Made by a program: the position numbers and the translations under genes. The notes below the pieces were generated by a model, which saw only the letters and a list, made by a program, of their open reading frames with translations, ran no database searches and was not told the DNA's origin. From the sequence record MH355584.1: a stretch of 64,000 nt of DNA. One strand, given 5' to 3'. Below, one piece after another: positions 3,782 through 47,227 of this stretch. Within the stretch, counting starts at the first letter, position 1; each line of letters starts with the position of its first letter. This DNA comes from Escherichia phage vB_EcoM_JB75.

Positions 3782-3861
3782 TGAGTAATTTCCATAACGA
3801 ACATGTGATGCAGTTCTATCGTAACAATCTTAAAACTAAAGGCGTCTTCGGACGCCAGTGA
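3781..3861 (+). CDS. stp: Stp peptide (26 aa), activator of the host PrrC anticodon nuclease
   Basis: [26 protein letters not shown], recognised as T4 Stp; TAATG overlap with the ndd stop. Confidence 0.85.
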
Positions 3862-3868
3862 GGAAAAT

Positions 3869-4024
3869 ATGAATATCGCAAAATTATTAGGAGTTATTTC
3901 ATTTATTTGTTGGATAGTAGCATGTGTTTTAACTATCTGTATCGATGCCAGCAGTGTGTTTTCGCAGGCTTTAGCCCAAGGTATGTGTGCATATTTAACA
4001 TTTGTGTTGTTATCTAATGATTAA
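3869..4024 (+). CDS. ac: acriflavine-resistance membrane peptide Ac (51 aa)
   Basis: 51 aa hydrophobic ORF directly after stp with SD gaggaaaat; matches T4 ac in length and position. Confidence 0.7.
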   Translation: MNIAKLLGVISFICWIVACVLTICIDASSVFSQALAQGMCAYLTFVLLSND

Positions 4025-4157
4025 GAAAATCTTGGGCTATTCATTAGCCCTTGCTATTTTATTGATAGCGTTATATTACGGAATAATGTTCGGATTAATT
4101 CAAGTCGTGCTTTTCATTTCTGATGTTATTATGGCACTACATTCACTAGTATGGTAA
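4017..4157 (+). CDS. small membrane peptide (46 aa), 52.1-like
   Basis: MIKKILGYSLALAILLIALYYGIMFGLIQVVLFISDVIMALHSLVW; overlaps the ac stop; lies just upstream of gene 52. Confidence 0.45.
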   Translation: MIKKILGYSLALAILLIALYYGIMFGLIQVVLFISDVIMALHSLVW

Positions 4158-4161
4158 ATTT

Positions 4162-5490
4162 ATGCAACTGAATAATCGCGATTTAAAAAGTATCATTGAT
4201 AATGAAGCATTGGCTTATGCTATGTACACGGTTGAAAATCGTGCTATCCCAAATATGATTGATGGATTTAAGCCAGTTCAACGATTTGTTATTGCTCGAG
4301 CTCTTGATTTGGCACGAGGAAATAAAGATAAGTTTCACAAACTCGCTTCTATTGCAGGTGGTGTAGCGGACCTTGGATATCACCATGGCGAAAACTCTGC
4401 ACAAGACGCAGGCGCTTTGATGGCTAATACTTGGAATAATAATTTTCCTTTGTTAGATGGTCAAGGAAACTTCGGTTCTCGTACTGTCCAAAAGGCAGCA
4501 GCAAGTCGTTATATTTTTGCTCGTGTAAGTAAAAATTTCTATAACGTATATAAAGATACTGAATATGCTCCGGTACATCAAGATAAAGAACACATTCCGC
4601 CTGCTTTCTATTTGCCTATTATTCCTACTGTTCTTCTTAATGGCGTTTCCGGTATTGCAACTGGTTATGCAACTTACATTCTTCCTCATAGTGTTTCTTC
4701 TGTTAAGAAAGCTGTACTGCAAGCTCTTCAAGGAAAGAAAGTAACTAAACCGAAGGTAGAATTCCCAGAATTTCGTGGTGAAGTCGTTGAGATTGACGGT
4801 CAATATGAAATTCGTGGAACATATAAGTTTACTTCACGAACTCAAATGCATATCACTGAGATTCCGTATAAGTATGATCGTGAAACTTATGTGAGTAAAA
4901 TCTTAGACCCGCTTGAAGATAAAGGCTTCATTACATGGGATGATGCTTGTGGTGAGCATGGCTTTGGCTTCAAAGTTAAATTCCGAAAAGAATACTCTTT
5001 GAGCGATAATGAAGAAGAACGCCATGCAAAAATTATGAAAGACTTCGGGTTGATTGAGCGTCGTTCCCAGAATATTACCGTCATTAATGAGAAAGGAAAG
5101 CTGCAAGTTTACGATAATGTAGTTGATTTAATCAAAGACTTCGTTGAAGTTCGTAAAACTTATGTCCAAAAACGAATTGATAACAAAATCAAAGAAACTG
5201 AATCAGCATTTCGTTTAGCTTTTGCCAAGGCACATTTCATTAAGAAAGTAATTTCAGGTGAAATTGTTGTACAAGGTAAAACTCGCAAAGAACTGACCGA
5301 AGAACTTTCTAAAATTGATATGTATTCTTCTTATGTTGATAAACTAGTTGGAATGAACATTTTTCATATGACTTCCGACGAAGCAAAGAAACTTGCTGAA
5401 GAAGCTAAAGCCAAAAAAGAAGAAAACGAATATTGGAAAACTACTGATGTAGTTACAGAATACACCAAAGATTTAGAGGAAATCAAATGA
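4162..5490 (+). CDS. 52: DNA topoisomerase II medium subunit gp52 (442 aa)
   Basis: 442 aa as in T4 gp52; N-terminal region AYAMYTVENRAIPNMIDGFKPVQRFVI resembles the GyrA/ParC N-terminal motif; adjacent to motA. Confidence 0.85.
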   Translation: MQLNNRDLKSIIDNEALAYAMYTVENRAIPNMIDGFKPVQRFVIARALDLARGNKDKFHKLASIAGGVADLGYHHGENSAQDAGALMANTWNNNFPLLDGQGNFGSRTVQKAAASRYIFARVSKNFYNVYKDTEYAPVHQDKEHIPPAFYLPIIPTVLLNGVSGIATGYATYILPHSVSSVKKAVLQALQGKKVTKPKVEFPEFRGEVVEIDGQYEIRGTYKFTSRTQMHITEIPYKYDRETYVSKILDPLEDKGFITWDDACGEHGFGFKVKFRKEYSLSDNEEERHAKIMKDFGLIERRSQNITVINEKGKLQVYDNVVDLIKDFVEVRKTYVQKRIDNKIKETESAFRLAFAKAHFIKKVISGEIVVQGKTRKELTEELSKIDMYSSYVDKLVGMNIFHMTSDEAKKLAEEAKAKKEENEYWKTTDVVTEYTKDLEEIK

Positions 5491-8990: not shown

Positions 8991-9647
8991 TTATTTAGCC
9001 CTTCCTAATATTCTGGCCGCCTGAGCACATATTGATTCAAGGCGGTCATTACTTATATGATCATTTCTATACCAGTACATGGTTATCGTTCCAGCATAGA
9101 TATTATCCAAATTAAAATATGGACAACTGTACATGTAGTTTATTTCGGGAGTAGGCTTTTTAGTTGGTAAAAAAGCAAATTTTGAGTCGGAATAATAATG
9201 ACGTCCATTTAAATGAACTGTATATTCATCCATAGTTTTATCAACAGGATATCCTCCAAGTGATTTTTCAGTTATTGTTGAAGGTAATCTTCCTTCATAT
9301 GCTATAATATCAACAAAATAGTTTAAGTTTTTAGGGCGGAAAGAATACACCGCACTAAAGTCTGCCTCAGATGATATATGAACTATCTGGAGTTGTTCCA
9401 GGGCGACAGATTCAAAGCGTGCATTTCTTTCCTTTTCAATAATTTCACTATATGTTTCATACTTTGATTGCTTATAGTACTCAAAGAAACTATCTCCCCT
9501 ATACCAAACAATCGCCATCATAAATAAAAGAATTACGACAGCTACTCGGGAAGCAAGAACCTTCCCGGTAGCGTTATCTTTGAACAAGCGATCTAGAACA
9601 CCAAACAGAATATCAGAGGGCGAAAATGATATTCTAGGTGCTGCCAT
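8991..9647 (-). CDS. t: holin T (218 aa)
   Basis: 218 aa as in the T4 holin; one N-terminal TM helix (VAVVILLFMMAIVWY) and a large periplasmic domain; follows gene 38 on the same strand. Confidence 0.88.
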   Translation of the reverse strand: MAAPRISFSPSDILFGVLDRLFKDNATGKVLASRVAVVILLFMMAIVWYRGDSFFEYYKQSKYETYSEIIEKERNARFESVALEQLQIVHISSEADFSAVYSFRPKNLNYFVDIIAYEGRLPSTITEKSLGGYPVDKTMDEYTVHLNGRHYYSDSKFAFLPTKKPTPEINYMYSCPYFNLDNIYAGTITMYWYRNDHISNDRLESICAQAARILGRAK

Positions 9648-9677
9648 AGACCCTCCTTTTAAGGGTATTTATTCACA

Positions 9678-10460
9678 TTATACTCTTGGACCATATATTG
9701 CTCCAACATTTTGCCACGTTGGAGCAGACCCTATGACAGCATAACCAGCAGCGCCGCCATTATATTCAGATCCTTGACCGCGAATATTGCATCTACCTCC
9801 CGCGGAACCTACTTCACCACCGTTTCCACCATTATAGATACCATTCACGGATCCTGAGCCAGGTGCAGAAATAGTACCAGCAGTTGCGCCTGATTGCATA
9901 TCAATAGATCCGCCAGGTGCACCAAACGGACGCCCACCACCACCGCCAAAGGTTAATCTCATTTGTGAAAAAGGAGAATAATATCCGCCGCCACCGCCAC
10001 CGCCACCGCCAGCAATAGCTCCACCATTATTAATTCTTAGTCTCCCACCAATATCGTTTTGAATACAATGACCTCCAGCTGAGCCAGGACTATTGCTACC
10101 ACCATTACCGCCACGTCCATACATCGTTACGCCATGTATATTTAACTGAACATATTCATTTGGTGTATCTCCGTACATGAAGAATAAAGGAACATCTTTA
10201 GAATATGATACTAAATCACCTGTAATATTAAACACTATAGGTGCACTACCTGCCTCAAAACATCTATCTCGGAACCACTGACCATTAAAATTGTGGTTTG
10301 CTGTTACGGTATGAATAATCTCTTTTGAGCGTCCGGCGAATTGGCTCATCCAGCAAGGAACACCCAATCTTAATTGACCAGCCGCTTGACTCATCCATCG
10401 TTGTCCTGTTTCATTTACGGATGAACTACCAATCCAACCAGGAACACCAACTACTGCCAT
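9678..10460 (-). CDS. 38: tail-fibre tip adhesin gp38, T2-type (260 aa)
   Basis: Downstream of gene 37; conserved N-terminus [13 protein letters not shown] followed by glycine-rich blocks ([18 protein letters not shown]) typical of T2-like gp38; much longer than the 183 aa T4-type gp38. Confidence 0.85.
9986..10011 (-). repeat. GC-rich hexamer-like repeat encoding the poly-Gly tract of gp38
   Basis: ccgccgccaccgccaccgccaccgcc on the + strand encodes nine consecutive Gly in gp38. Confidence 0.8.
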
Positions 10461-10474
10461 AATTTATCTCCAAA

Positions 10475-10490
10475 GGGGGCGTTGCCCCTT
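10475..10490 (-). terminator. hairpin between genes 37 and 38
   Basis: GGGGCGTTGCCCC hairpin in the 34 nt gap between 37 and 38. Confidence 0.45.
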
Positions 10491-10494
10491 GTTG

Positions 10495-13443
10495 TTAGAA
10501 TTTAAAATATTTACTAATTTTGCGAGTAATTTTAGTAAAGAAAGGAGTTTTCAATTCTTTAATTTCTTCGCTCATTTCTTGGATAGCCTTAATTAAAAGA
10601 GCATTTACAGCGGAGTTAGAAATTGTCAGAACATCAGATCCATCAACTTCAACTTTAGATACAGCTTCCGGTAATTCCTTTTCAAGGTCCTGAGCAATAA
10701 TACCAACTTCACGTTTAATAACACTACGGTCTTTAATAGACTTAACTTTATCGTAAATATAAACTTTCAGTCGACATACTTTTTCAAGTGCTCCGTTTTC
10801 TAGCTCTTTTTTATTAATCTTAAGACGACCATCGGAACGAATATACACATCGTTAAAGTTACCATTACCAGGAGAATAGAAAGTACCGTCGTAATGAAAT
10901 TCAAATACCGCGTTAGGGTGTCCAGCCGCTGGCGATGCCTCTGCAGATCCAACACGAATAATTGCTTGCCCCCAATTGTTAGGGACACGACGAATACCAA
11001 GATCGACGGCAGTTACAAACCCTTGATTGGTGATTACACTTTTTCCTTTAATAATTGGATAATAACAATCCTGTGAAACATAACCATGATCGACGAATAA
11101 TGGAGCTTCTACTCGCCATTGGTTGCCCCAATCACCCGGTTGTCTAGCAATCCATCCAGAACCGTTAATGTGTACACGATCGCGGTTAACGTTAACCATT
11201 GCGATATTTTGTGGATTTAGCGAAATCTCACCATTGTTTGTGATATGTACTGCCGCCTGAGTAGCATAGCTATAAAATGCTAGCGAATTATCAGCACCAC
11301 CCTTGCCAATATACCAGTTACCAGCCCCGTCTATGTCACCGCGAATATGCAAAGAATTACTAGCAGTTGTTGATAATACGATAGAATCATTAGGTGCATT
11401 GATTGTTAACCGACCTGTCATCGTATCACCGCCTTTACCTAGGCGAGTATTCAAGGCAGCATCTAAATTGGTTGCATCGTTGTATTTCTTCCAGATTGAA
11501 CCAGCAATGTTACCATCAGTGTTCAAGAATGCTGCGCCAGCATAAACTCGGCTTTGTGACATGAATCGGCCAGACGGCAAGAAACGCCATATAGCTAATT
11601 CAGTGGCTGTAGTTCCAGTAGCGGATAAATCACCCTGAGCAACGATACGATATTCTGAACTAGCAATATCCATACCAGAAGCCATAGTAATATTTGTTAC
11701 AGTGTTTTTCTGTTTAACAATTGGCGCAAACTGGTTTTTATTTGAATCGTCAATGGCCTGATATAATGGTGCAATGGTAGTATTCTGATTCGCGTAAGTA
11801 TTAGAACCAGAACCGCTAGCAGGGGCTTGAATATATGCTCCTGGAGCAAGTGAAATTTTCTGATTAGCACCAAGATTAACAGCAGCAGTGATATTCAACA
11901 ATCCCCTAAAGTTTTGTTGAGCAGTCCAAGTATGTGATCCATCTTCAAGAACAACACGGCGAACTGTGCAAGTTCTATTTCCAGAATTACCGAACACACG
12001 AACGACAAAATAACGATAGTTTGTCTGGGATACAGTTCCACGCCAAACCTGAACAGTACGTCCTGTGCTGGTGTGCTCGCTAGGACCAACAGAAAACATA
12101 ATTAAGTTTCCGTCAATCGTGCCCCAATTCATATTAGCTGGCATGTTCTTTATTTTGTTCAAAGGAACGCTAAACATACTACCAGGAACAAAATCAAATG
12201 TTTGCCAATCTAGCTCCGCTAATTGAGTTTTAATACCACCCATACCTAAAGTAATTGGCAGAGAGTAAGATGTATATACTTCGTTCCATGCACCCCACAC
12301 ACCACCAGTATATGCACGCTCAAAAATACGATCGCGAGTAGTTGCACCCGTTCCGGCAGTAGTAAATTTTTGGAAAATAGCACCGCCAGAAGCACGTTGT
12401 TTAACTTCCAGCAAACCAACAATAACAGTCGGCAAACCTTCACCTGTAGGACAGTTAATAACGGCATCAGTGCCTAAAATATTATATAACCCAGGGGTTT
12501 TAAAATCATTCAGATCTCCGTCATAGAAAGTCGCTGGTGTGACATTACCGACTTGTTGCCACGGTCCCCATTTAGGCGCGGAAGCATCCCACGCGGCAGC
12601 AAGACAACGAGTATATACAACACCAAATCTGGTTGTATATCTTTGTGTACGAGAATAGTTTCCACCTTCATATACTTCCAAAAGACCTTGAGCTGACGAC
12701 CCCTCTTCTGGGAAATTTCTGTCAAAGGTAGCAATGGAATTTGAACTATTTCGCCACAAACCAAAGTGTTCAGCGCCTCCTAGATCATTAAGATCAATTG
12801 TTGTTGACAGTGGACGAGTACCGGATTGAATATTTCGCCACACACTCCACGGACCATTTACTCCGTTCCATGTAGCAGTCAAGGAACGAATATAAACATT
12901 TCCGTATCTAGTTGTATATCTCTGAGTACCAGCAAATTGACCGGCCACAAATACTTCTAGCACACCTACAGCATTTTCTTCTGGAAATTTATTTGCTGGT
13001 TGAGCGTTGGTTGAAGTTGCTTTCGACCAAACTCCAAGATATTCTTCAACAGGCCCATACGTATCTAAATTAGCATCAACAGGTAATTCGCCATTATTTT
13101 TTATAAACGTTGTGCTATTGACATTTATGTCAGATGGAGTTAGCGTGATATCTTTTGACCCATCAAAGGATATACCATTAATTTTTCGTGCTGTTTTTAA
13201 TTTCGTTGCAGTTGCAGCGTTACCTGTTAAATTTCCAATTATATTTCCATTAACAGTTAAAGAACCATCAATTGTTCCTCCATATTTTAAACCTAATTCT
13301 ATAACACTGCCTGAGTCATCTTTTGTGAAAATTGTTTTATCTTTTAAGTTTATAGCCAATTCACCTTCGGCTAATACTGAAGCAGCAGGACGTTGACCTG
13401 CAGTTTTGCTTCTTTTAAATTGTATTTGTTTTAAAGTAGCCAT
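10495..13443 (-). CDS. 37: long tail fibre distal subunit gp37 (982 aa)
   Basis: Large ORF between 36 and 38; N-terminus [35 protein letters not shown] is the conserved 34/37 fibre N-terminal motif. Confidence 0.9.
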
Positions 13444-36950: not shown

Positions 36951-37286
36951 ATGTCTGAAGTACAACAGCTACCAATTCGTGCTGTCGGTGAATATGTTAT
37001 TTTAGTTTCTGAACCTGCACAAGCCGGTGATGAAGAAGTTACAGAATCAGGACTTATTATCGGTAAACGTGTTCAAGGTGAAGTTCCTGAACTGTGTGTA
37101 GTTCACTCTGTCGGTCCTGATGTTCCTGAAGGTTTCTGTGAAGTTGGTGATTTGACTTCTCTTCCAGTTGGTCAAATTCGAAATGTTCCGCATCCTTTTG
37201 TAGCTCTGGGTCTTAAGCAGCCAAAAGAAATTAAACAAAAATTCGTTACTTGTCACTATAAAGCTATTCCGTGTCTTTATAAGTGA
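36951..37286 (+). CDS. 31: co-chaperonin gp31 (GroES analogue), 111 aa
   Basis: 111 aa; [44 protein letters not shown] matches recalled T4 gp31; MotA-box middle promoter upstream. Confidence 0.9.
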
Positions 37287-37294
37287 TATAAATA
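37287..37294 (+). promoter_or_regulatory. late promoter upstream of rIII
   Basis: TATAAATA immediately after gene 31. Confidence 0.5.
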
Positions 37295-37433
37295 ATAATA
37301 TGAATTGGGTGTCGGAATAATAAGTTAACCGAACAATTCTATGTGGTAGTCTACAACTGAGAGATCTGTCGAAAGAAGATGAAATTCAGAAGAACGTGAC
37401 TACCGAGTTTTAATCTCTAACGAGAATTTTTAA

Positions 37434-37682
37434 ATGATTAAACAATTACAACACGCTCTTGAACTGCAACGAAACGCATGGAATAATGGTCACGAAAACT
37501 ATGGCGCATCTATTGATGTTGAAGCCGAAGCTCTTGAAATCCTGCGTTATTTCAAACATCTGAATCCTGCTCAAACTGCATTAGCTGCTGAGCTTCAGGA
37601 AAAAGATGAACTTAAATATGCTAAGCCTCTGGCTTCTGCTGCACGAAAAGCAGTTCGTCACTTTGTGGTAACACTGAAGTAA
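37434..37682 (+). CDS. rIII: lysis-inhibition accessory protein rIII (82 aa)
   Basis: 82 aa as in T4 rIII; downstream of gene 31; late promoter TATAAATA upstream. Confidence 0.78.
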   Translation: MIKQLQHALELQRNAWNNGHENYGASIDVEAEALEILRYFKHLNPAQTALAAELQEKDELKYAKPLASAARKAVRHFVVTLK

Positions 37683-38080
37683 TTTATTGGAGAGTCACTG
37701 CCTTAGTGTGAAGTTAAAACGAGGAGCCGTCGAACTGTCTGATTAATGATTTGCGAATCATTATAGTTTTAAGACCCCGGCAGTTTTACGGTGTACCTCT
37801 TGAATGTTATTCTTATAGCGGCAAGTGCATGCTACCCCGAGGTGATGGCCAATCGGGAGTACGCCTCAAGGCCTATATATCCATCAGTATATATCTTATC
37901 CTCGAGAAATCGAACCCGGAACCTTTAAGCTAACGGTGTGCAACAGATAAGAGCTATAAGGTATGATGACGGGTTTATAGTTATCCTGGTCGTTAAATAT
38001 CCAAAAACCTATGTTCCCCTTGAGGGCTTGCGCAGGCAATGCCAATAAGTCCTGCATTTTCATTTAAAAGAGAATTTATA

Positions 38081-38257
38081 ATGGCAAAACAAGCTAAAGC
38101 AAAGAAAGCAGTTGAAAAGAAAGTTGGTGATTCTAAACGCGCTGGCTACAAGCGTGGGTCGAACTCTCGTATCAATCAAACTGTTGAGAAGATCATGCGC
38201 CGAGCACGTGCGGTTCTTCGAGATGATGCTTCTCGTTTTGGTAAGCAGAAAGCATAA
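38081..38257 (+). CDS. small basic protein (58 aa)
   Basis: MAKQAKAKKAVEKKVGDSKRAGYKRGSNSRINQTVEKIMRRARAVLRDDASRFGKQKA; strongly Lys/Arg-rich; followed by a strong terminator. Confidence 0.5.
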   Translation: MAKQAKAKKAVEKKVGDSKRAGYKRGSNSRINQTVEKIMRRARAVLRDDASRFGKQKA

Positions 38258-38262
38258 GTTGA

Positions 38263-38291
38263 GGACTCCTTCGGGAGTCCTTTTTTATTTT
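38263..38291 (+). terminator. rho-independent terminator
   Basis: GGACTCCTTCGGGAGTCC hairpin followed by TTTTTTATTTT. Confidence 0.8.
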
Positions 38292-38310
38292 CCAAAGATT
38301 GCATAAAGTT

Positions 38311-38359
38311 GTTTACAGTATGGTTCCTTTGTGATAGTATTATCTTACACAAACAAAGG
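38311..38359 (+). promoter_or_regulatory. early promoter with stem-loop
   Basis: GTTTAC at 38311; inverted repeat CCTTTGTG...CACAAACAAAGG around TAGTATTAT. Confidence 0.6.
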
Positions 38360-38367
38360 AGAATAAA

Positions 38368-38700
38368 ATGAAAACGATTAATCTGAACGCTGCAGTTAAA
38401 ACTAAATGCTTCAATGGTAAATATGATGAAACTATGTGGTTCTTAATGGCAGTTGAAGGTGATATTATTGAAGTAGAAACAACAGAAGGTATGGGAACAG
38501 ATTTCACCTTTACAATTCAAGTTCATAATTTCTTTACTGGTTGGATTTATGAATTGAATACAGTAATCGTTGGAAAAATTGAACAAAATGAATTAGGTGA
38601 ATGGTATTATGTTACAGCTCGCCAACGTGCCGAACGCTTAATTGAGAAGATGAAAAAAGTTGGTAAACTTGACATGCAGCATTGGAAAGTAGTAAAATAA
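38368..38700 (+). CDS. hypothetical protein (110 aa)
   Basis: ORF with SD aaggagaat and an early promoter. Confidence 0.6.
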   Translation: MKTINLNAAVKTKCFNGKYDETMWFLMAVEGDIIEVETTEGMGTDFTFTIQVHNFFTGWIYELNTVIVGKIEQNELGEWYYVTARQRAERLIEKMKKVGKLDMQHWKVVK

Positions 38701-38702
38701 TT

Positions 38703-38742
38703 GTTTACTTTGGTACAGGATATGATATTATATACCTGTACC
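38703..38742 (+). promoter_or_regulatory. early promoter with stem-loop
   Basis: GTTTAC at 38703; inverted repeat GGTACAGG...CCTGTACC around GATATTATAT. Confidence 0.6.
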
Positions 38743-38767
38743 GCAATTAAACATCTTGGAGAATAAA

Positions 38768-39133
38768 ATGAACTACATCAACTTTGAACGTAAATATGTT
38801 TCTAATGGTATTGCAGGTTCTATTGATACTATTTGCCTTTGGAAACATCAAAATGGATCAGTATGCGAAATTGAGCAGTATATGACTCCTAATTACGTTT
38901 ATATGCGATTTGAAAACGGTATCACGGTTTCAATCACGATGGAAGGTTCCAACTTTAAAATCGCTCTGGATGATGATTTCCGTGAACGCGATTTAGGGAC
39001 TCATCCTTGCTGGAATGGCGTTAATCGCAAGCTTTTGGTTAAAACTTGGATTCGTCATATTCTGAGTAACAGAGCTAAACCTGAGCATCTTGAAGCAATC
39101 TTTGATGTAGTTCTTAACGAATTTGATATTTAA
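38768..39133 (+). CDS. hypothetical protein (121 aa)
   Basis: ATG with SD ggagaataaa and an early promoter; the ORF-track start at 38756 is a TTG. Confidence 0.6.
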   Translation: MNYINFERKYVSNGIAGSIDTICLWKHQNGSVCEIEQYMTPNYVYMRFENGITVSITMEGSNFKIALDDDFRERDLGTHPCWNGVNRKLLVKTWIRHILSNRAKPEHLEAIFDVVLNEFDI

Positions 39134-39173
39134 AATAAATGAGGGGCTTTGGCCCCTTACTGAGGAAAATGTT

Positions 39174-39461
39174 ATGTTTATGACTACTTATTTTGATACC
39201 CGTAAAAACTTCTGCGAAGTAGTTTTCTCAAAGGCGCCTAAAGACCTTCCTGCACATTTGCAACCTACCAGTGAATCGATTAAAAACTACGTTAATGTAG
39301 TCTGCCCTTTAGAGTTCCGTACTGTAAATGGGCGCGATACTTTAGCTATCACTAAACTCAATCGTGAAATTGACATTGACCCTTCAATTGCGCGCGAAAT
39401 TAATATTTCTGATATTGGTGGAGGTAATGTTAAATCGCATGGTTTTCAGATGAGGTTCTAA
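39174..39461 (+). CDS. hypothetical protein (95 aa)
   Basis: ATG with SD gaggaaaatgtt; follows a terminator hairpin that the longer track ORF would run through. Confidence 0.55.
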   Translation: MFMTTYFDTRKNFCEVVFSKAPKDLPAHLQPTSESIKNYVNVVCPLEFRTVNGRDTLAITKLNREIDIDPSIAREINISDIGGGNVKSHGFQMRF

Positions 39462-39658
39462 TGAAATTCTTTTTAGATCAAACCGTTGAATTAAAGGGAG
39501 TTGGTATACCTGGATTAATTTCTAAGGTTTTACCTGCATTTAAATTGGGAGATGTTCAAGTAAAAGAGGCTTATATTGTTTCTTGGGTAGATGGAAATGA
39601 AGACCTTCGTATGGGTGATGAATTATCTCCTATCTACGGATTAAAGGAATTAGTATGA
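39461..39658 (+). CDS. hypothetical protein (65 aa)
   Basis: Translationally coupled ORF. Confidence 0.5.
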   Translation: MKFFLDQTVELKGVGIPGLISKVLPAFKLGDVQVKEAYIVSWVDGNEDLRMGDELSPIYGLKELV

Positions 39659-39861
39659 ATATAATTAATAAGATTTTTGGAATTCAGTACATTAAGGTCA
39701 CATATAAAGTAACAGATAAAAATCCATATACCGATGAACATGAAGAACCACAAATTGAGTCTATTATATTAGAAAAAGGCAGTGACTGGCCAGTTGAATT
39801 TCGTCTACCAAACTATGGTCATTGGGCTGATGTTGAAATTATAAGCATTGAAAATGTCTGA
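39655..39861 (+). CDS. hypothetical protein (68 aa)
   Basis: Translationally coupled ORF. Confidence 0.5.
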   Translation: MNIINKIFGIQYIKVTYKVTDKNPYTDEHEEPQIESIILEKGSDWPVEFRLPNYGHWADVEIISIENV

Positions 39862-40312
39862 GTTAGAGATTAGAAGTAATTTTAGGTGGCCATCATGTGC
39901 ATTAAGTAATTTCGCCCATTGGCCTTTCGTTATGGATGGTATTCAATTTGGAGGTCTTGAAGGATTCCTCCAAGGATGCAAGGTGAAAAACGTTGAACAA
40001 CAACGTCGTATATTTGGGTTATCCGGGCTTGCCGCTCAACAAGCTGGAAGGTCTTATGCTAGAGCTCAGGACCGTGGGACCCTCTTCTGGCTTGGAGTTC
40101 CATTTTCAAGATACTCCCCGGCGTGGAAAGAATTATGCACAAATGCATATTTTGAAGCAGCGATTCAAAACAAGGGCTTTCGTGATGCATTACAAGCCTC
40201 GAAAGGAAAAGTTTTGAAGCACAGCATGGCTAGTGGTCTAACAAAAGATGATACAATACTAACCGAAGCTGAATTTATTGATGTGTTAAACCTATTAAGA
40301 GACTCTCTATGA
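39854..40312 (+). CDS. NADAR/YbiA-like (DUF1768) protein (152 aa)
   Basis: LSNFAHWPFVMDGIQFGGLEGFLQGCK resembles the N-terminal signature of the NADAR/YbiA family as I recall it; assignment is from motif memory, not a search. Confidence 0.5.
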   Translation: MSELEIRSNFRWPSCALSNFAHWPFVMDGIQFGGLEGFLQGCKVKNVEQQRRIFGLSGLAAQQAGRSYARAQDRGTLFWLGVPFSRYSPAWKELCTNAYFEAAIQNKGFRDALQASKGKVLKHSMASGLTKDDTILTEAEFIDVLNLLRDSL

Positions 40313-41145
40313 AGCCTACTATTTTAACTGATATTGATGGAGTATGTTTAAGCTGGCAATCAGGTCTTCCTTATTTTGCTCAGAAATATAATCTTCCGTT
40401 AGAACATATTTTAAAAATGATCCAGGATGAGAAATTTATTTCTCCAGGTAAACTCTTTAATTGTGACGAAGAACTTGGCGTCAAGCTAATTGAAAAATAC
40501 AATCGTTCAGATTTTATTCGTTACTTGTCTCCATATAAAGATGCTCTGTGTGTAATTAACAAATTAAAAGAAGATTATAATTTTGTAGCTGTTACAGCAT
40601 TGGGTGATTCTATTGACGCTCTGCTGAATCGTCAATTTAATTTGAACGCTCTTTTTCCTGGTGCCTTCTCAGAAGTACTGATGTGTGGTCATGATTCTTC
40701 AAAAGAAGAGTTGTTTAAAAAGGCAAAAGAGAAATATAACGTGATTTGTTATATTGACGATCTCGCTCACCATTGCGATCATGCGAGTGAAATATTAAAT
40801 GTTCCTGTTTATTGGATGGCTCGAGGAGAGCGTGACAATATTCCAAAAACTGCTCAGCGAGTTTATACATGGAATGATGTAGAGAATAAGCTTTTTCCAC
40901 CGAAGGAAAATAAAGAAAGTTTTGATCGTGAAAAAGCTATAAAAGATGTAATTGAAAAGATGATTAAAAACGATTCTTTTCCTTGGAACACTACCTGGAG
41001 AACTCCTGGATTTAATCCTTATAATCCATATCATCCATATCAGACGCATCCGTTTCAGACATGGAACTATATTAAACCCGGTGGCATAGAGTATTTGTAT
41101 AATAGACCTACTGGTGCTAATAATATTTTCCAAGGAGCATTCTAA
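40309..41145 (+). CDS. HAD-like hydrolase-fold protein with Pro/Tyr-rich C-terminal tail (278 aa)
   Basis: N-terminal ILTDIDGV fits HAD motif I (DxDGx); C-terminus has NPYNPYHPYQTHPFQTWNY repeats. Confidence 0.5.
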   Translation: MKPTILTDIDGVCLSWQSGLPYFAQKYNLPLEHILKMIQDEKFISPGKLFNCDEELGVKLIEKYNRSDFIRYLSPYKDALCVINKLKEDYNFVAVTALGDSIDALLNRQFNLNALFPGAFSEVLMCGHDSSKEELFKKAKEKYNVICYIDDLAHHCDHASEILNVPVYWMARGERDNIPKTAQRVYTWNDVENKLFPPKENKESFDREKAIKDVIEKMIKNDSFPWNTTWRTPGFNPYNPYHPYQTHPFQTWNYIKPGGIEYLYNRPTGANNIFQGAF

Positions 41146-41414
41146 TGTTTGTTGTTCACACTATTTATGAAAATGAAGGTAATACTACGCGTGATTACGG
41201 TCACGTAAATCAATTTTTTAGATGCAATCCAGAATTCCGAGCTCAAAAAGACGAACGAATTTTTAAAAAATGTGTAGAGCAAGGTTTCATTTACGTCAAG
41301 CACTGGATGCAAGGAAATAAAGTTAGAACCACGTACCACAGGTCTTTGACTGAGCTTAATGATGAATTGATTTATAATAGAGCTGTAAACCAAACTCTAA
41401 AGGATGAACAATGA
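41145..41414 (+). CDS. hypothetical protein (89 aa)
   Basis: ORF coupled to gene 30. Confidence 0.5.
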   Translation: MFVVHTIYENEGNTTRDYGHVNQFFRCNPEFRAQKDERIFKKCVEQGFIYVKHWMQGNKVRTTYHRSLTELNDELIYNRAVNQTLKDEQ

Positions 41415-42874
41415 TTCTTAAAATTCTGAACGAAATAGCATCTATTGGTTCAACTAAGCAGAAGCAAGCAATTCTTGAAAAGAATAAAGATAATGAATTG
41501 CTTAAACGAGTATATCGTCTGACTTATTCTCGTGGGTTACAGTATTATATCAAGAAATGGCCTAAACCTGGTATTGCTACCCAGAGTTTTGGAATGTTGA
41601 CTCTTACTGATATGCTTGACTTCATTGAATTCACGTTAGCTACTCGGAAATTGACTGGAAATGCGGCAATTGAAGAATTAATTGGTTATATTACTGACGG
41701 TAAAAAAGATGATGTTGAAGTTTTGCGTCGAGTGATGATGCGAGACCTTGAATGTGGTGCTTCAGTATCTATTGCAAACAAAGTTTGGCCAGGTTTAATT
41801 CCTGAACAACCTCAAATGCTCGCAAGTTCTTATGATGAAAAAGGCATTAATAAGAATATCAAATTTCCAGCCTTTGCCCAGTTAAAAGCTGATGGAGCTC
41901 GGTGCTTTGCCGAAGTCAGAGGTGATGAATTAGATGACGTTCGTCTTTTATCACGAGCTGGTAATGAATATCTAGGATTAGATCTTCTTAAGGAAGAATT
42001 AATCAAAATGACCGCTGAAGCCCGCCAGATTCATCCAGAAGGCGTGTTAATTGATGGCGAATTGGTATACCATGAGCAAGTTGAAAAGGAGCCAGAAGGC
42101 CTAGATTTTCTTTTTGATGCTTATCCTGAAAACAGTAAAGCTAAAGAATTCGCCGAAGTAGCTGAATCACGTACTGCATCTAATGGCATCGCCAATAAAT
42201 CTTTAAAGGGAACCATTTCTGAAAAAGAAGCACAATGCATGAAGTTTCAGGTCTGGGATTATGTACCGTTGGTAGAAATATACGGTCTTCCTGCATTTCG
42301 TTTGAAATATGATGTACGTTTTTCTAAACTAGAACAAATGACATCAGGCTATGATAAAGTAATTTTAATTGAAAACCAGGTAGTAAATAACCTAGACGAA
42401 GCCAAGGTAATTTATAAAAAGTATATTGACCAAGGTCTTGAAGGTATTATTCTCAAAAATATCGATGGATTATGGGAAAATGCTCGTTCAAAAAATCTCT
42501 ATAAATTTAAAGAAGTAATTGATGTTGATTTAAAAATTGTAGGAATTTATCCTCACCGTAAAGACCCTACTAAAGCAGGTGGATTTATTCTTGAGTCAGA
42601 GTGTGGAAAAATTAAAGTAAATGCTGGTTCAGGCTTAAAAGATAAAGCCGGTGTAAAATCGCATGAACTTGACCGTACTCGCATTATGGAAAACCAAAAT
42701 TATTATATTGGAAAAATTCTAGAGTGCGAATGCAACGGTTGGTTAAAATCTGATGGCCGCACTGATTACGTTAAATTATTTCTTCCGATTGCGATTCGTT
42801 TGCGTGAAGATAAAACTAAAGCTAATACATTCGAGGATGTATTTGGTGATTTTCATGAGGTAACTGGTTTATGA
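41411..42874 (+). CDS. 30: ATP-dependent DNA ligase gp30 (487 aa)
   Basis: 487 aa as T4 DNA ligase; N-terminus MILKILNEIASIGSTKQKQAIL; adenylation motif KADGAR. Confidence 0.93.
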   Translation: MILKILNEIASIGSTKQKQAILEKNKDNELLKRVYRLTYSRGLQYYIKKWPKPGIATQSFGMLTLTDMLDFIEFTLATRKLTGNAAIEELIGYITDGKKDDVEVLRRVMMRDLECGASVSIANKVWPGLIPEQPQMLASSYDEKGINKNIKFPAFAQLKADGARCFAEVRGDELDDVRLLSRAGNEYLGLDLLKEELIKMTAEARQIHPEGVLIDGELVYHEQVEKEPEGLDFLFDAYPENSKAKEFAEVAESRTASNGIANKSLKGTISEKEAQCMKFQVWDYVPLVEIYGLPAFRLKYDVRFSKLEQMTSGYDKVILIENQVVNNLDEAKVIYKKYIDQGLEGIILKNIDGLWENARSKNLYKFKEVIDVDLKIVGIYPHRKDPTKAGGFILESECGKIKVNAGSGLKDKAGVKSHELDRTRIMENQNYYIGKILECECNGWLKSDGRTDYVKLFLPIAIRLREDKTKANTFEDVFGDFHEVTGL

Positions 42875-43059
42875 AAGCTTACTTAGAAACAATTGTCATT
42901 GCTCAAAAAGAAGGTGGAGATGTTTCTACTTCTGTATCACAAGTCATTCTCGAATTTGTAGATGCATACGCTTATAATAAATTCACAGAAACATTTGATG
43001 CCTATGAAAAAGGTCCAAAGTTTGAAATATACCGTACTCTCTTACCACTAGATTATTAA
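42871..43059 (+). CDS. hypothetical protein (62 aa)
   Basis: ATGA-coupled to gene 30; followed by a terminator hairpin. Confidence 0.45.
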   Translation: MKAYLETIVIAQKEGGDVSTSVSQVILEFVDAYAYNKFTETFDAYEKGPKFEIYRTLLPLDY

Positions 43060-43080
43060 AGGCCTTCGGGCCTTTAATTT
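43060..43080 (+). terminator. hairpin terminator upstream of alt
   Basis: AGGCCTTCGGGCCT hairpin followed by a T-rich tract. Confidence 0.6.
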
Positions 43081-43108
43081 TATAAATAGAATAAACACTA
43101 GAGAGGCT

Positions 43109-45166
43109 ATGATGGAACTTATTACAGAATTATTTGACGAAGATACTACTCTTCCGATTACAAACTTAAATCCAAAGAAGAAAATACCGCAAATTTTTTC
43201 AGTTCATGTTGATGATGCAATTGAACAACCAGGCTTTCGTTTATGTACCTATACATCTGGAGGTGATACTAATCGCGATTTAAAGATGGGCGATAAAATG
43301 ATGCATATTGTTCCTTTTACATTAACTGCTAAAGGTTCAATTGCTAAATTAAAAGGTCTTGGTCCAAGCCCAATTAATTATATCAATTCAGTTTTTACTG
43401 TTGCGATGCAAACAATGCGTCAGTATAAAATTGATGCCTGTATGCTTCGTATTCTTAAGTCTAAAACCGCTGGTCAAGCTCGACAAATTCAAGTTATTGC
43501 TGATAGACTTATCCGTAGTCGTTCAGGTGGCAGATACGTCCTTCTTAAGGAACTCTGGGATTACGATAAAAAGTATGCATATATTCTTATACATCGCAAA
43601 AATGTATCACTAGAAGACATTCCGGGAGTTCCGGAAATTAGTACTGAGCTCTTTACTAAAGTTGAATCGAAGGTCGGTGATGTTTATATCAATAAAGATA
43701 CTGGAGCTCAAGTAACTAAAAATGAGGCAATTGCAGCATCTATTGCGCAAGAAAATGATAAACGTTCTGACCAAGCTGTAATCGTTAAAGTTAAAATTTC
43801 CCGTAGAGCAATTGCGCAAAGTCAATCATTGGAATCTTCTAGATTTGAAACGCCGATGTTTCAAAAATTTGAGGCTTCAGCAGCAGAATTAAATAAACCT
43901 GCTGACGCTCCTTTAATTTCTGACGCTAATGAATTAACTGTTATTTCTACTTCAGGATTTGCATTAGAGAATGCTCTTAGTAGTGTTACAGCTGGAATGG
44001 CATTCAGAGAAGCTTCTATAATTCCTGAAGATAAAGAATCTGATGTTAATGCAGAAATAAAAAATAAAGCTTTAGAAAGATTACGAAAAGAATCTATTAC
44101 TTCAATAAAAACTTTAGAAACTATTGCTTCTATAGTTGATGATACTTTAGAAAAATATAAAGGTGCTTGGTTAGAAAGAAACATTAACAAGCATTCGCAT
44201 TTAAATCAAGATGCTGCGAATGAGTTAGTACAAAATTCTTGGAATGCAATAAAAACAAAGATTATTCGAAGAGAATTGCGTGGATATGCTCTTACCGCTG
44301 GATGGTCACTACATCCTATAGTCGAAAATAAAGATTCATCTAAATACACACCGGCACAAAAACGCGGAATTCGTGAATACGTAAGTTCAGGATATGTAGA
44401 CATAAATAACGCTCTTTTGGGATTATATAATCCAGATGAGCGTACAAGTATTTTGACAGCATCTGATATAGAAAAAGCTATTGATAATTTAGATTCTGCC
44501 TTTAAAAATGGTGAACGATTACCAAAAGGTATTACTTTGTATCGTTCACAACGAATGTTACCTTCAATATATGAAGCACTGGTAAAAAATCGAGTTTTTT
44601 ATTTTAGAAATTTTGTGTCAACATCATTATATCCAAATATTTTTGGTACCTGGATGACTGATTCATCTGTGGGTGTTTTACCAGACGAAAAGCGTTTAAG
44701 TGTTTCTATTGATAAAACTGATGAAGGACTAGTAAATTCTAGCGATAATTTAGTTGGAATTGGATGGGTTATTACTGGGGCTGATAAAGTCAATGTTGTT
44801 TTACCAGGTGGAAGTTTAGCACCTTCAAATGAAATGGAAGTCATTTTGCCACGTGGATTAATGGTCAAAGTTAATAAAATAACCGATGCATCTTACAATG
44901 ATGGAACAGTTAAAACTAACAACAAGCTTATTCAAGCTGAAGTTATGACCACAGAAGAACTCACCGAATCGGTAATTTATGACGGTGACCGTCTAATGGA
45001 AACCGGCGAAGTAGTTACAATGACAGGTGATATTGAAATAGAAGACAGAGTTGATTTTGCATCATTTGTTTCATCAAATGTTAAACAGAAAGTAGAATCA
45101 TCTCTTGGAATTATTGCGTCTTGTATAGATATTGCAAACATGCCTTACAAGTTCGTTCAAGGATAA
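43109..45166 (+). CDS. alt: Alt-family ADP-ribosyltransferase paralog 1 (685 aa)
   Basis: N-terminus MELITELFD conserved with the adjacent paralog; R-S-E motifs (LYRSQ, FVSTSL, EVILPRG); size close to T4 Alt (682 aa). Confidence 0.8.
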   Translation: MMELITELFDEDTTLPITNLNPKKKIPQIFSVHVDDAIEQPGFRLCTYTSGGDTNRDLKMGDKMMHIVPFTLTAKGSIAKLKGLGPSPINYINSVFTVAMQTMRQYKIDACMLRILKSKTAGQARQIQVIADRLIRSRSGGRYVLLKELWDYDKKYAYILIHRKNVSLEDIPGVPEISTELFTKVESKVGDVYINKDTGAQVTKNEAIAASIAQENDKRSDQAVIVKVKISRRAIAQSQSLESSRFETPMFQKFEASAAELNKPADAPLISDANELTVISTSGFALENALSSVTAGMAFREASIIPEDKESDVNAEIKNKALERLRKESITSIKTLETIASIVDDTLEKYKGAWLERNINKHSHLNQDAANELVQNSWNAIKTKIIRRELRGYALTAGWSLHPIVENKDSSKYTPAQKRGIREYVSSGYVDINNALLGLYNPDERTSILTASDIEKAIDNLDSAFKNGERLPKGITLYRSQRMLPSIYEALVKNRVFYFRNFVSTSLYPNIFGTWMTDSSVGVLPDEKRLSVSIDKTDEGLVNSSDNLVGIGWVITGADKVNVVLPGGSLAPSNEMEVILPRGLMVKVNKITDASYNDGTVKTNNKLIQAEVMTTEELTESVIYDGDRLMETGEVVTMTGDIEIEDRVDFASFVSSNVKQKVESSLGIIASCIDIANMPYKFVQG

Positions 45167-45169
45167 ATC

Positions 45170-47227
45170 ATGGAACTTATTACAGAATTATTTGACGGCG
45201 CTTCGGCGCCGGTTGTTAACTTAAATCCTAAGCATAAAATACCACAAATTTTTGCTATTCAAGCCGGCGAAGAAAGCGTGCTTCCTGGATTTAGATTTTG
45301 TACATACACCTCTGGTGGTGATACGAATAAAAACGTTAAGCCAGGCGATAAAATGATGCATATCGTAATGATAGGTGTTAATGAGAAACTATCATTAGTT
45401 AAGCTTAAAAACTTGGGTGGAAATCCAATTGGTGTCATTAATGCCGTTTTTGATACTGCTCTTCAAACAATGAAACAGTATAAAATCGACGCATGCCTAT
45501 TCCGCGTACTAAAAAGTAAAACAAATGGCGCAGCTCGTCAAATGCAAGTTATTGCTGACCGTTTAGTACGTACTAAAGGAGCAGGTCGATATGTTCTTTT
45601 AAAGGAAATCTGGGACTATGATAAGAAATATGCATATATTATGGTTTACCGTAAAAATGCCAATTTAGAAGACATTCCAGGTGTACCTCCTATTTCAACT
45701 GAGTTATTCACAAAAGTTGAATCAAAGGTCGGTGATGTTTATGTAGACGTTAAAACAGGAAATGCTGTTCCTAAAGCTGTCGCTGTTGCTGCTTCTATTG
45801 CTTTAGAAAATGATAAGCGCACGGACCAAGCTGTTATTCAGAAAACTAAAATCAGTCGTCGATTAGCAGCACAAGCTCAATATTCTACTGTTGATGCTTC
45901 ACTTCAGGGTGATAGCTTTGCTGCCAAGAAATATCAAGAGTTTGAATCTAAAGTTCCGGTATATAAAGCAGAAGGTCCGATGAACTCTGGCGTTATCCAG
46001 ATTGGTTCAAACTTCAGCAAAGGAGCTATCGGTGGTATGAGAAGTGCTTCTCGTTTTAAATCTAACGATTATGAACTAGAAAGCTTCCGAAATCATATTG
46101 CATTGGCCCATGCACGTTTACGTGATCCATCTATCAAGTTGCAGAGCGATATAACATATCAAGGTTCTCAAGAATATTTAAAGAATAAAGAATTCTTTGA
46201 TTATAAAACTGATAAAATTTTAAGCGATCTTGCTGACATTAATATTTCTAATAGCTTTGATGTTATTAAGAAAATTATCAATGATTTGGTTAAAGGTTCT
46301 AAAGCCACGCCAGATGAAAAGACAGCTATTATTCAATTTGTAATGAATGGCATTTATAAATTGATTAATGAATCTGCTGCCCAGGCATATGAATACGCAA
46401 GCACCGAAGTAGCTCCAAAAGGACTGACTCAGGCTGAATCTGATGTAATTGAAGATTATTGTGCAGATTCATATGTTGAAATGAACTCGTTCCTTTTGGG
46501 TAAACCAGATTCTACCCGTGAAGAATACATGGAACGAGCTATTAAGCACATCGAGACGTTAGATTCTGCCTTTGCCAAAGGATCAGTTCTTCCTCCAGGA
46601 ACTACACTTTACCGTGGGCAAGAAGTTACCTTTAAAACTTTGCGTCATAACATTGAAAATAAAATGTTCTATTTCAAGAACTTCGTATCCACATCGCTTA
46701 AACCAAATATCTTCGGTGAGCATGGTAAAAACTATATGGCTCTAGATGATTCTGGCGCAGTATTTTCTGGCGAAGGAGAAGGTTCCGTTGATACAGAAGA
46801 TTTGATGCATATGGGTAGTCATTCTACATATGCTAATGAAGATGCTGAAACTAGCGTGGGTATGGTAATTAAAGGAGCTGAGCGAATCAAAGTTATCGTT
46901 CCAGGTCATTTATCAGGATTTCCATCAGAAGCTGAAGTTATTCTACCACGTGGAATTTTACTGAAGATTAATAAAGTAAGTACGTACTTTATGAAAGAAA
47001 CTGCTTATAACAAGTATCTAATCGAAGGTACAATCGTTCCTCCTTCTGAACAATTAGAAGAATCAGTATATGATGGAGACCATCTAATGGAAACTGGTGA
47101 AGTTCGTCCAATGGCTGGATTTAATCAATTCCTTGTAGAAGAATCAAAAGAAGAGGAAAATGAAGTTTCTCAAATCTTGGCTTCTTTGGTTAACATCAAC
47201 GGAATGTCTAAAAAGTTCAAAATGTAG
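45170..47227 (+). CDS. Alt-family ADP-ribosyltransferase paralog 2 (685 aa)
   Basis: Tandem paralog with the same N-terminal about 200 aa and R-S-E motifs (LYRGQ, FVSTSL, EVILPRG) but a diverged central region. Confidence 0.8.
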   Translation: MELITELFDGASAPVVNLNPKHKIPQIFAIQAGEESVLPGFRFCTYTSGGDTNKNVKPGDKMMHIVMIGVNEKLSLVKLKNLGGNPIGVINAVFDTALQTMKQYKIDACLFRVLKSKTNGAARQMQVIADRLVRTKGAGRYVLLKEIWDYDKKYAYIMVYRKNANLEDIPGVPPISTELFTKVESKVGDVYVDVKTGNAVPKAVAVAASIALENDKRTDQAVIQKTKISRRLAAQAQYSTVDASLQGDSFAAKKYQEFESKVPVYKAEGPMNSGVIQIGSNFSKGAIGGMRSASRFKSNDYELESFRNHIALAHARLRDPSIKLQSDITYQGSQEYLKNKEFFDYKTDKILSDLADINISNSFDVIKKIINDLVKGSKATPDEKTAIIQFVMNGIYKLINESAAQAYEYASTEVAPKGLTQAESDVIEDYCADSYVEMNSFLLGKPDSTREEYMERAIKHIETLDSAFAKGSVLPPGTTLYRGQEVTFKTLRHNIENKMFYFKNFVSTSLKPNIFGEHGKNYMALDDSGAVFSGEGEGSVDTEDLMHMGSHSTYANEDAETSVGMVIKGAERIKVIVPGHLSGFPSEAEVILPRGILLKINKVSTYFMKETAYNKYLIEGTIVPPSEQLEESVYDGDHLMETGEVRPMAGFNQFLVEESKEEENEVSQILASLVNINGMSKKFKM

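Follow-up and report, generated by a model that had tools for sequence, protein, structure and literature searches.

Does a small open reading frame (ORF) in a T4-like phage encode an enzyme that frees DNA from ADP-ribose, and could that enzyme shield the phage from a bacterial toxin? The question arose from a 64,000-nucleotide stretch of Escherichia phage vB_EcoM_JB75 (MH355584.1), referred to here as the window. Reading of the letters alone had suggested that a 152-aa product encoded upstream of a DNA ligase resembles the NADAR (DUF1768/YbiA) proteins, which reverse guanine ADP-ribosylation on DNA, and that it could counter DarT-type toxins or tune ADP-ribosylation.

The adfN gene and its surroundings

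Translation confirmed both the ORF and the motif that drew attention to it. According to the ORF listing and our reading of the sequence, the frame opens with an ATG at 39854 on the + strand and closes with a TGA stop at 40310-40312; the motif, LSNFAHWPFVMDGIQFGGLEGFLQGCK, makes up residues 17-43 of the product. There is also an in-frame TTG at 39848, two codons 5′ of the ATG, which would give a protein of 154 aa. We rejected this start in favor of the ATG, at which the annotations of T4 and of Yersinia phage PYps55T begin the gene. The match to the family profile begins only at residue 11 and so favors neither start.

The DNA from 39000 to 42900 is 99.0% identical to that of PYps55T and of Escherichia phage UPWr_E2, and it matches 661 phage records, nearly all from T4-like coliphages. 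PYps55T is classified in Tequatrovirus, and the window belongs to the same genus. The genes run in the order 30.8, 30.7, and so on to 30.4, adfN (30.3), 30.2, 30.1 (DUF3045), DNA ligase (30), alt.1, and alt, which is the phage T4 order read on the T4 minus strand. The ligase was found downstream of the ORF, as expected, and the two alt genes said to lie about 3 kb away proved to be full-length paralogues, the first beginning about 2.8 kb past the end of the ORF. The label "early cluster" for this locus is an assumption that we carry over solely from knowledge of T4. Features are collected in Table 1.

Table 1. Features of the adfN locus, in window positions
Feature	Position	Strand	Basis or description
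30.4 orthologue	39655-39861	+	ORF; phrog_2042, E=3e-33; T4 annotation
adfN (T4 gene 30.3 orthologue)	39854-40312	+	152 aa; predicted phage-type NADAR DNA ADP-ribosylglycohydrolase
Signature segment, residues 17-43 (LSNFAHWPF...EGFLQGCK)	39902-39982	+	N-terminal half of active site; conservation, YbiA alignment
Glu36 codon GAA	39959-39961	+	Catalytic residue by analogy; sequence; invariant (76/76)
Lys43 codon AAG	39980-39982	+	Catalytic residue by analogy; sequence; present in 74/76
ORF 30.3′ (annotated in T4)	39990-40217	+	Inside adfN, other frame
His123 codon CAC	40220-40222	+	Invariant (76/76); follows model strand 120-122
C-terminal helix, residues 138-151, and L152	40265-40309	+	Helix in model; gapless against T4
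30.2 orthologue	40309-41145	+	278 aa; phrog_420, E=3e-93; start overlaps adfN stop as ATGA
DNA ligase	41411-42874	+	PF01068
alt paralogue 1	43109-45166	+	685 aa, full length; PF03496 ADP-ribosyltransferase domain
alt paralogue 2	45170-47227	+	685 aa, full length; PF03496

The gene for the 30.4 orthologue (68 aa) runs 8 nt into the start of adfN, and this overlap suggests translational coupling. Farther upstream, a strong terminator-like hairpin (9 pairs, then a T run) lies at 38261-38282 (+), 3′ of a 30.9-like ORF, and a near-consensus sigma-70 site (TTGACA, 18 nt, TAAAAT; 11/12) lies at 38669-38698 (+), just upstream of 30.7. The two may bound the transcription unit of adfN. A scan of 37000-43200 for promoters and terminators found no excess over shuffled sequence (23 versus 20.8 and 5 versus 4.0), and we therefore make no claim about that unit.

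The product matches PF08010 (Phage_30_3, "Bacteriophage protein GP30.3") over the whole profile (1-138/138), with E=5e-69 and 230.9 bits (cut-off, 36 bits), and it also matches phrog_652. It shares 149 of its 152 residues (98%) with T4 gp30.3 (NP_049816) without gaps and is 100% identical to the PYps55T protein; exactly this sequence has the accession QNJ50818.1. Homologues of gp30.3 are present in 1510 phage records, 1504 of them with at least 80% query coverage. Beyond coliphages, these include phages of Klebsiella, Aeromonas, Acinetobacter, and Vibrio, and more distant homologues come from phages of Sinorhizobium, Agrobacterium, and Ralstonia. Given the PF08010 match, the number of homologue-bearing records, and the deposition of the exact sequence, adfN is a real gene and not a chance ORF. 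In UniRef, the T4 protein is called "Anti-DarT factor NADAR" (NADAR_BPT4), and the closest records that we inspected, the exact match included, label the gene "hypothetical protein". The 90%-identity cluster of the 152-aa protein also has members of 278-284 aa, its representative being 279 aa long. These are gp30.2-like lengths, one of the members is named HAD-like hydrolase, and their presence in the cluster is probably an artefact of chimeric or read-through sequence.

NADAR fold and predicted active site

Profile searches for the NADAR domain gave a divided answer. The product itself had no match to the Pfam NADAR family, PF08719, at E<=1, but 12 of 76 relatives did match it, with a best E=1.5e-7. 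NCBIfam returned no family for the product, and a single-sequence search of the PDB gave chance-level hits only (a glycosyltransferase and an ATP pyrophosphatase, E ~0.4). The link to NADAR required a profile, the relatives, and a comparison of folds. A profile built from an alignment of 76 full-length homologues (35-91% identity) matches E. coli YbiA (2b3w) with E=0.0046. Residues 17-43 align with YbiA FSNFAAWPI...SEHYFQAQKF, and the family profile places E36 and K43 on the Glu and Lys of SEHYFQAQK, the conserved pair by which NADAR proteins contact ADP-ribose. The AlphaFold model of the product (mean pLDDT 94.2, pTM 0.89) has the YbiA/NADAR fold in fold comparisons that included Foldseek. 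The expectation of a NADAR/YbiA-like enzyme was thus borne out by structure prediction as well as by the 98% identity to T4 AdfN, although by the measure of these searches the relationship is remote in sequence.

All 76 homologues share P13, A16-F20, F25, E36-F38, Q40, H123, T134, and T137; within the signature segment, the invariant positions are L17, S18, N19, F20, F25, E36, G37, F38, and Q40. For the catalytic residue at the last strand, YbiA is reported to have Glu, DarT1-linked NADARs Asp, and phage NADARs His (PMC11543638), and a second report likewise describes a histidine at this position in the phage NADARs, alias gp30.3 proteins (PMC11125620). His123 is this phage-NADAR replacement of the YbiA Glu and the DarG1 Asp.

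According to mutant data described in PMC11825919, the same residues matter for the T4 protein. E36A gave only partial rescue in vivo and served as the inactive control in vitro, K43A also gave only partial rescue, and cutting the protein at the position where the RB69 allele ends led to reduced activity and weaker rescue. The segment absent from the defective RB69 allele is the C-terminal helix, which is covered by all 76 aligned sequences and is intact in adfN here. The window allele thus has all the features on which the T4 enzyme is known to depend.

Published function of T4 AdfN and the window allele

Much of the biology comes from T4. Its gp30.3 was renamed AdfN, for anti-DarT factor NADAR (Johannesman et al., Nat Commun 2025, PMC11825919), and is described as a guanosine-specific DNA ADP-ribosylglycohydrolase (PMC11825919; PMC11125620). 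By the account in PMC11825919, mapping with chimeric phages led to the 3′ portion of gene 30.3. The DarTG1-sensitive phage RB69 has a frameshift that deletes the last 15 residues of its AdfN and is rescued by ectopic adfN, and T4 and T2 lacking adfN form no plaques on DarTG1 hosts. The same source reports that purified AdfN, and not the E36A protein, strips ADP-ribose from DarT1-modified DNA, and that a two-hybrid assay detected no binding between AdfN and DarT1. Cihlova et al. 2024 (PMC11125620) reported that phage gp30.3 hydrolyses guanosine-ADPr and not thymidine-ADPr in vitro; the NADAR mechanism was defined by Schuller et al. 2023 (PMC11543638). With DarTG2, the thymidine system, T2 and T4 without adfN were still resistant, and adfN is reported to have no effect (PMC11825919).

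We hold with high confidence that the window gene is orthologous to T4 gene 30.3, adfN, and that it encodes a NADAR hydrolase countering DarT1 modification of phage DNA. The identity, the fold, the intact residues, and the length of the product are direct observations on this allele. Enzyme activity and protection against DarTG1 are known from the T4 protein and would carry over to this allele on the strength of 98% identity. The original prediction of an enzyme that reverses guanine ADP-ribosylation and counters DarT-type toxins stands, through this identity and the published T4 function, for DarT1 and guanosine; its extension to DarT toxins in general, DarTG2 included, does not.

In the proposed mechanism, host DarT1 would ADP-ribosylate guanosines in the phage DNA and so block replication. 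AdfN, a small single-domain hydrolase of the NADAR fold, would cleave the ADP-ribose from the base and restore replicable DNA. Its active site would consist of Glu36 and Lys43 of the SNFA...EGFxQxxK segment and of His123, the phage-specific residue that follows the last strand, and full activity would need the C-terminal helix. Enzymatically, AdfN would act like the host antitoxin DarG1, but without a partner toxin and without binding DarT1.

E. coli YbiA shares the fold and the E/K motif, and bacterial and plant NADARs are annotated as N-glycosidases on riboflavin intermediates (PMC11125620). We therefore considered that the product could be no DNA repair enzyme but a YbiA-type metabolic N-glycosidase that destroys reactive intermediates of the riboflavin pathway, or some other hydrolase of small molecules. 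However, the last-strand Glu that defines YbiA is His in 76 of 76 relatives, and riboflavin genes are absent nearby. The T4 protein is reported to work on ADP-ribosylated DNA in vitro and to set the DarTG1 phenotype, and the reported DarTG1 sensitivity of the deletion mutant argues against a metabolic main role. E. coli YbiA and the P. nicotianae NADAR (PF08719; 2b3w, 8bau) are only 17-20% identical to the adfN product. The YbiA family keeps a Glu at the last strand, while the adfN product has His123 and gives no match to the PF08719 model; the former proteins have a host role, and adfN would serve phage counter-defence. A metabolic enzyme is, in our judgment, extremely unlikely, and the DNA ADP-ribosylglycohydrolase remains the preferred reading.

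DarG1, the NADAR antitoxin of DarTG1 (BC4488 family), is the closer functional parallel. DarG1 is encoded beside DarT1, whereas adfN is an orphan with 30.4, 30.2, 30.1, and ligase as its neighbors; DarG1 has Asp at the last strand where the adfN product has His123, and the adfN product is shorter, with 152 aa against 219 in the G. lovleyi 8bat chain. The adfN product is no DarG1 family member, even if by analogy it would work like one. According to PMC11825919, T4 AdfN fails to counteract DarT1 in uninfected cells, where it cannot replace DarG1, and it barely helps the non-T-even phages T5 and Bas25; the authors consider that T4 AdfN possibly needs another T-even factor. From this failure and this weak help, it follows that the in vivo mechanism of AdfN is incompletely understood and that another T-even factor may take part. 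The AdfN proteins of Bas32/Bas33 and Bas60-62 are likewise described as phage-encoded, guanosine-specific NADARs that counter DarTG1, but they fall in different NADAR branches, probably go back to independent acquisitions, and function without the T-even context (PMC11825919).

The window allele resembles that of T4 (NADAR_BPT4, PF08010) in gene order, in its overlaps with 30.4 and 30.2, and in E36, K43, H123, and the C-terminal helix. It differs by three substitutions, Q22H, Y95C, and I125M, and by an ACG in place of the ATG of the overlapping T4 ORF 30.3′. Across the 76 sequences, positions 22 and 125 are variable, and 125 is most often Met. No other sequence among them has Cys at position 95, which lies within model helix 89-105 and is mostly Leu, Ile, or Tyr.

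This unique cysteine raises the possibility that the three substitutions have weakened or inactivated the allele, as happened by other means in RB69. Disrupted natural alleles do exist: besides the RB69 frameshift, the proteins P0007, P0016, P0017, and P0049 of other T4-like phages are shortened or fused gp30.3 products of 86-109 aa. Against a weak allele, the product has its full length and keeps the C-terminal helix, E36, K43, and H123; two or more independent phage isolates share the identical sequence; and helix 89-105, where position 95 lies, is modelled with a block-mean pLDDT of 94-97. We see nothing in Q22H, Y95C, and I125M that would suggest a loss of function, and an impaired allele strikes us as very unlikely. 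Some of the four short or fused products carry parts of the neighboring families PF11097 or PF06019. Since several deposited T4-like phages have such products, adfN seems to have been lost or rearranged repeatedly, and not only through the frameshift published for RB69.

From the full-length product with its intact catalytic residues, we predict that the phage resists DarTG1 hosts. The finding itself is already known: publications of 2023-2025 cover the family, its fold and catalytic residues, the activity in vitro, and the role in counter-defence, and the name is in UniProt. Little is added to biology at large, and the practical value lies in annotation, with "hypothetical protein" becoming adfN. 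The locus touches the question of why the action of T4-type AdfN is confined to T-even infections, and the window makes testing it no easier.

Neighboring genes

The two alt paralogues lie 2.8-6.9 kb downstream of adfN on the same strand, and it had been proposed from their proximity that adfN tunes the phage's own ADP-ribosylation. The enzyme would then undo Alt, ModA, or ModB marks on host proteins or RNA. Yet 30.2, 30.1, ligase, and alt.1 intervene, and in the published work the enzyme acts on guanosine-ADPr in DNA, reportedly with enough specificity to exclude thymidine-ADPr. Moreover, we found no ADP-ribosyltransferase within 6 kb of two distant gp30.3 homologues carried on large phage contigs. 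There is a slim chance at best that adfN serves this purpose. We rejected a functional link between adfN and alt as unsupported; their proximity looks like T4 synteny rather than functional pairing, and the role of adfN against DarT1 remains the preferred one. The tandem alt paralogues are 41% identical to each other. T4 has its second copy only as the fragments alt.-1 and alt.-2, whereas both are full length in the window; the PYps55T record labels its second copy hypothetical.

The overlapping neighbor 30.2 bears on the partner question. The N-terminus of gp30.2 reads MKPTILTDIDGV, in which DIDGV resembles motif I of the HAD phosphatases. Tequatrovirus homologues are named HAD-like hydrolase in one source, and gp30.2 has a weak PHROG match to a polynucleotide kinase family (E=0.0031). 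It had no Pfam match at E<=1, and a PDB sequence search gave no significant match. The T-even partner of adfN could be the coupled gp30.4 or the HAD-motif gp30.2, making 30.4-30.3-30.2 a small counter-defence module and not a lone enzyme; we consider this idea unlikely. Since the T4 enzyme needs the T-even context, we looked for 30.2 beside other gp30.3 homologues. At two distant loci, on a 308-kb (L003) and an 82-kb (L005) phage-like contig, there was no 30.2-like neighbor (BLASTP of flanking genes against gp30.2, E 1.4 and 0.29), the flanking genes matched no PHROG family, and the two loci had no neighbor in common. They lend no support to a partner, and they are too few to speak against a T-even-specific one. 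Near the homologue in L003 are NUDIX and Thg1-like proteins (9115-11294), and near that in L005 are GGDEF and SprT-like proteins (3819-4316 and 10496-12468).

The internal ORF 30.3′ has lost its T4 start codon both in the window phage and in PYps55T. The change from ATG to ACG is synonymous in the adfN frame (AAT to AAC). A TTG at 39993 is the only such start left in the 30.3′ frame, the rest of which is open and has 4 aa differences from T4 past the start. The ACG weakens the case for 30.3′ as a real gene, or else 30.3′ starts at the TTG.
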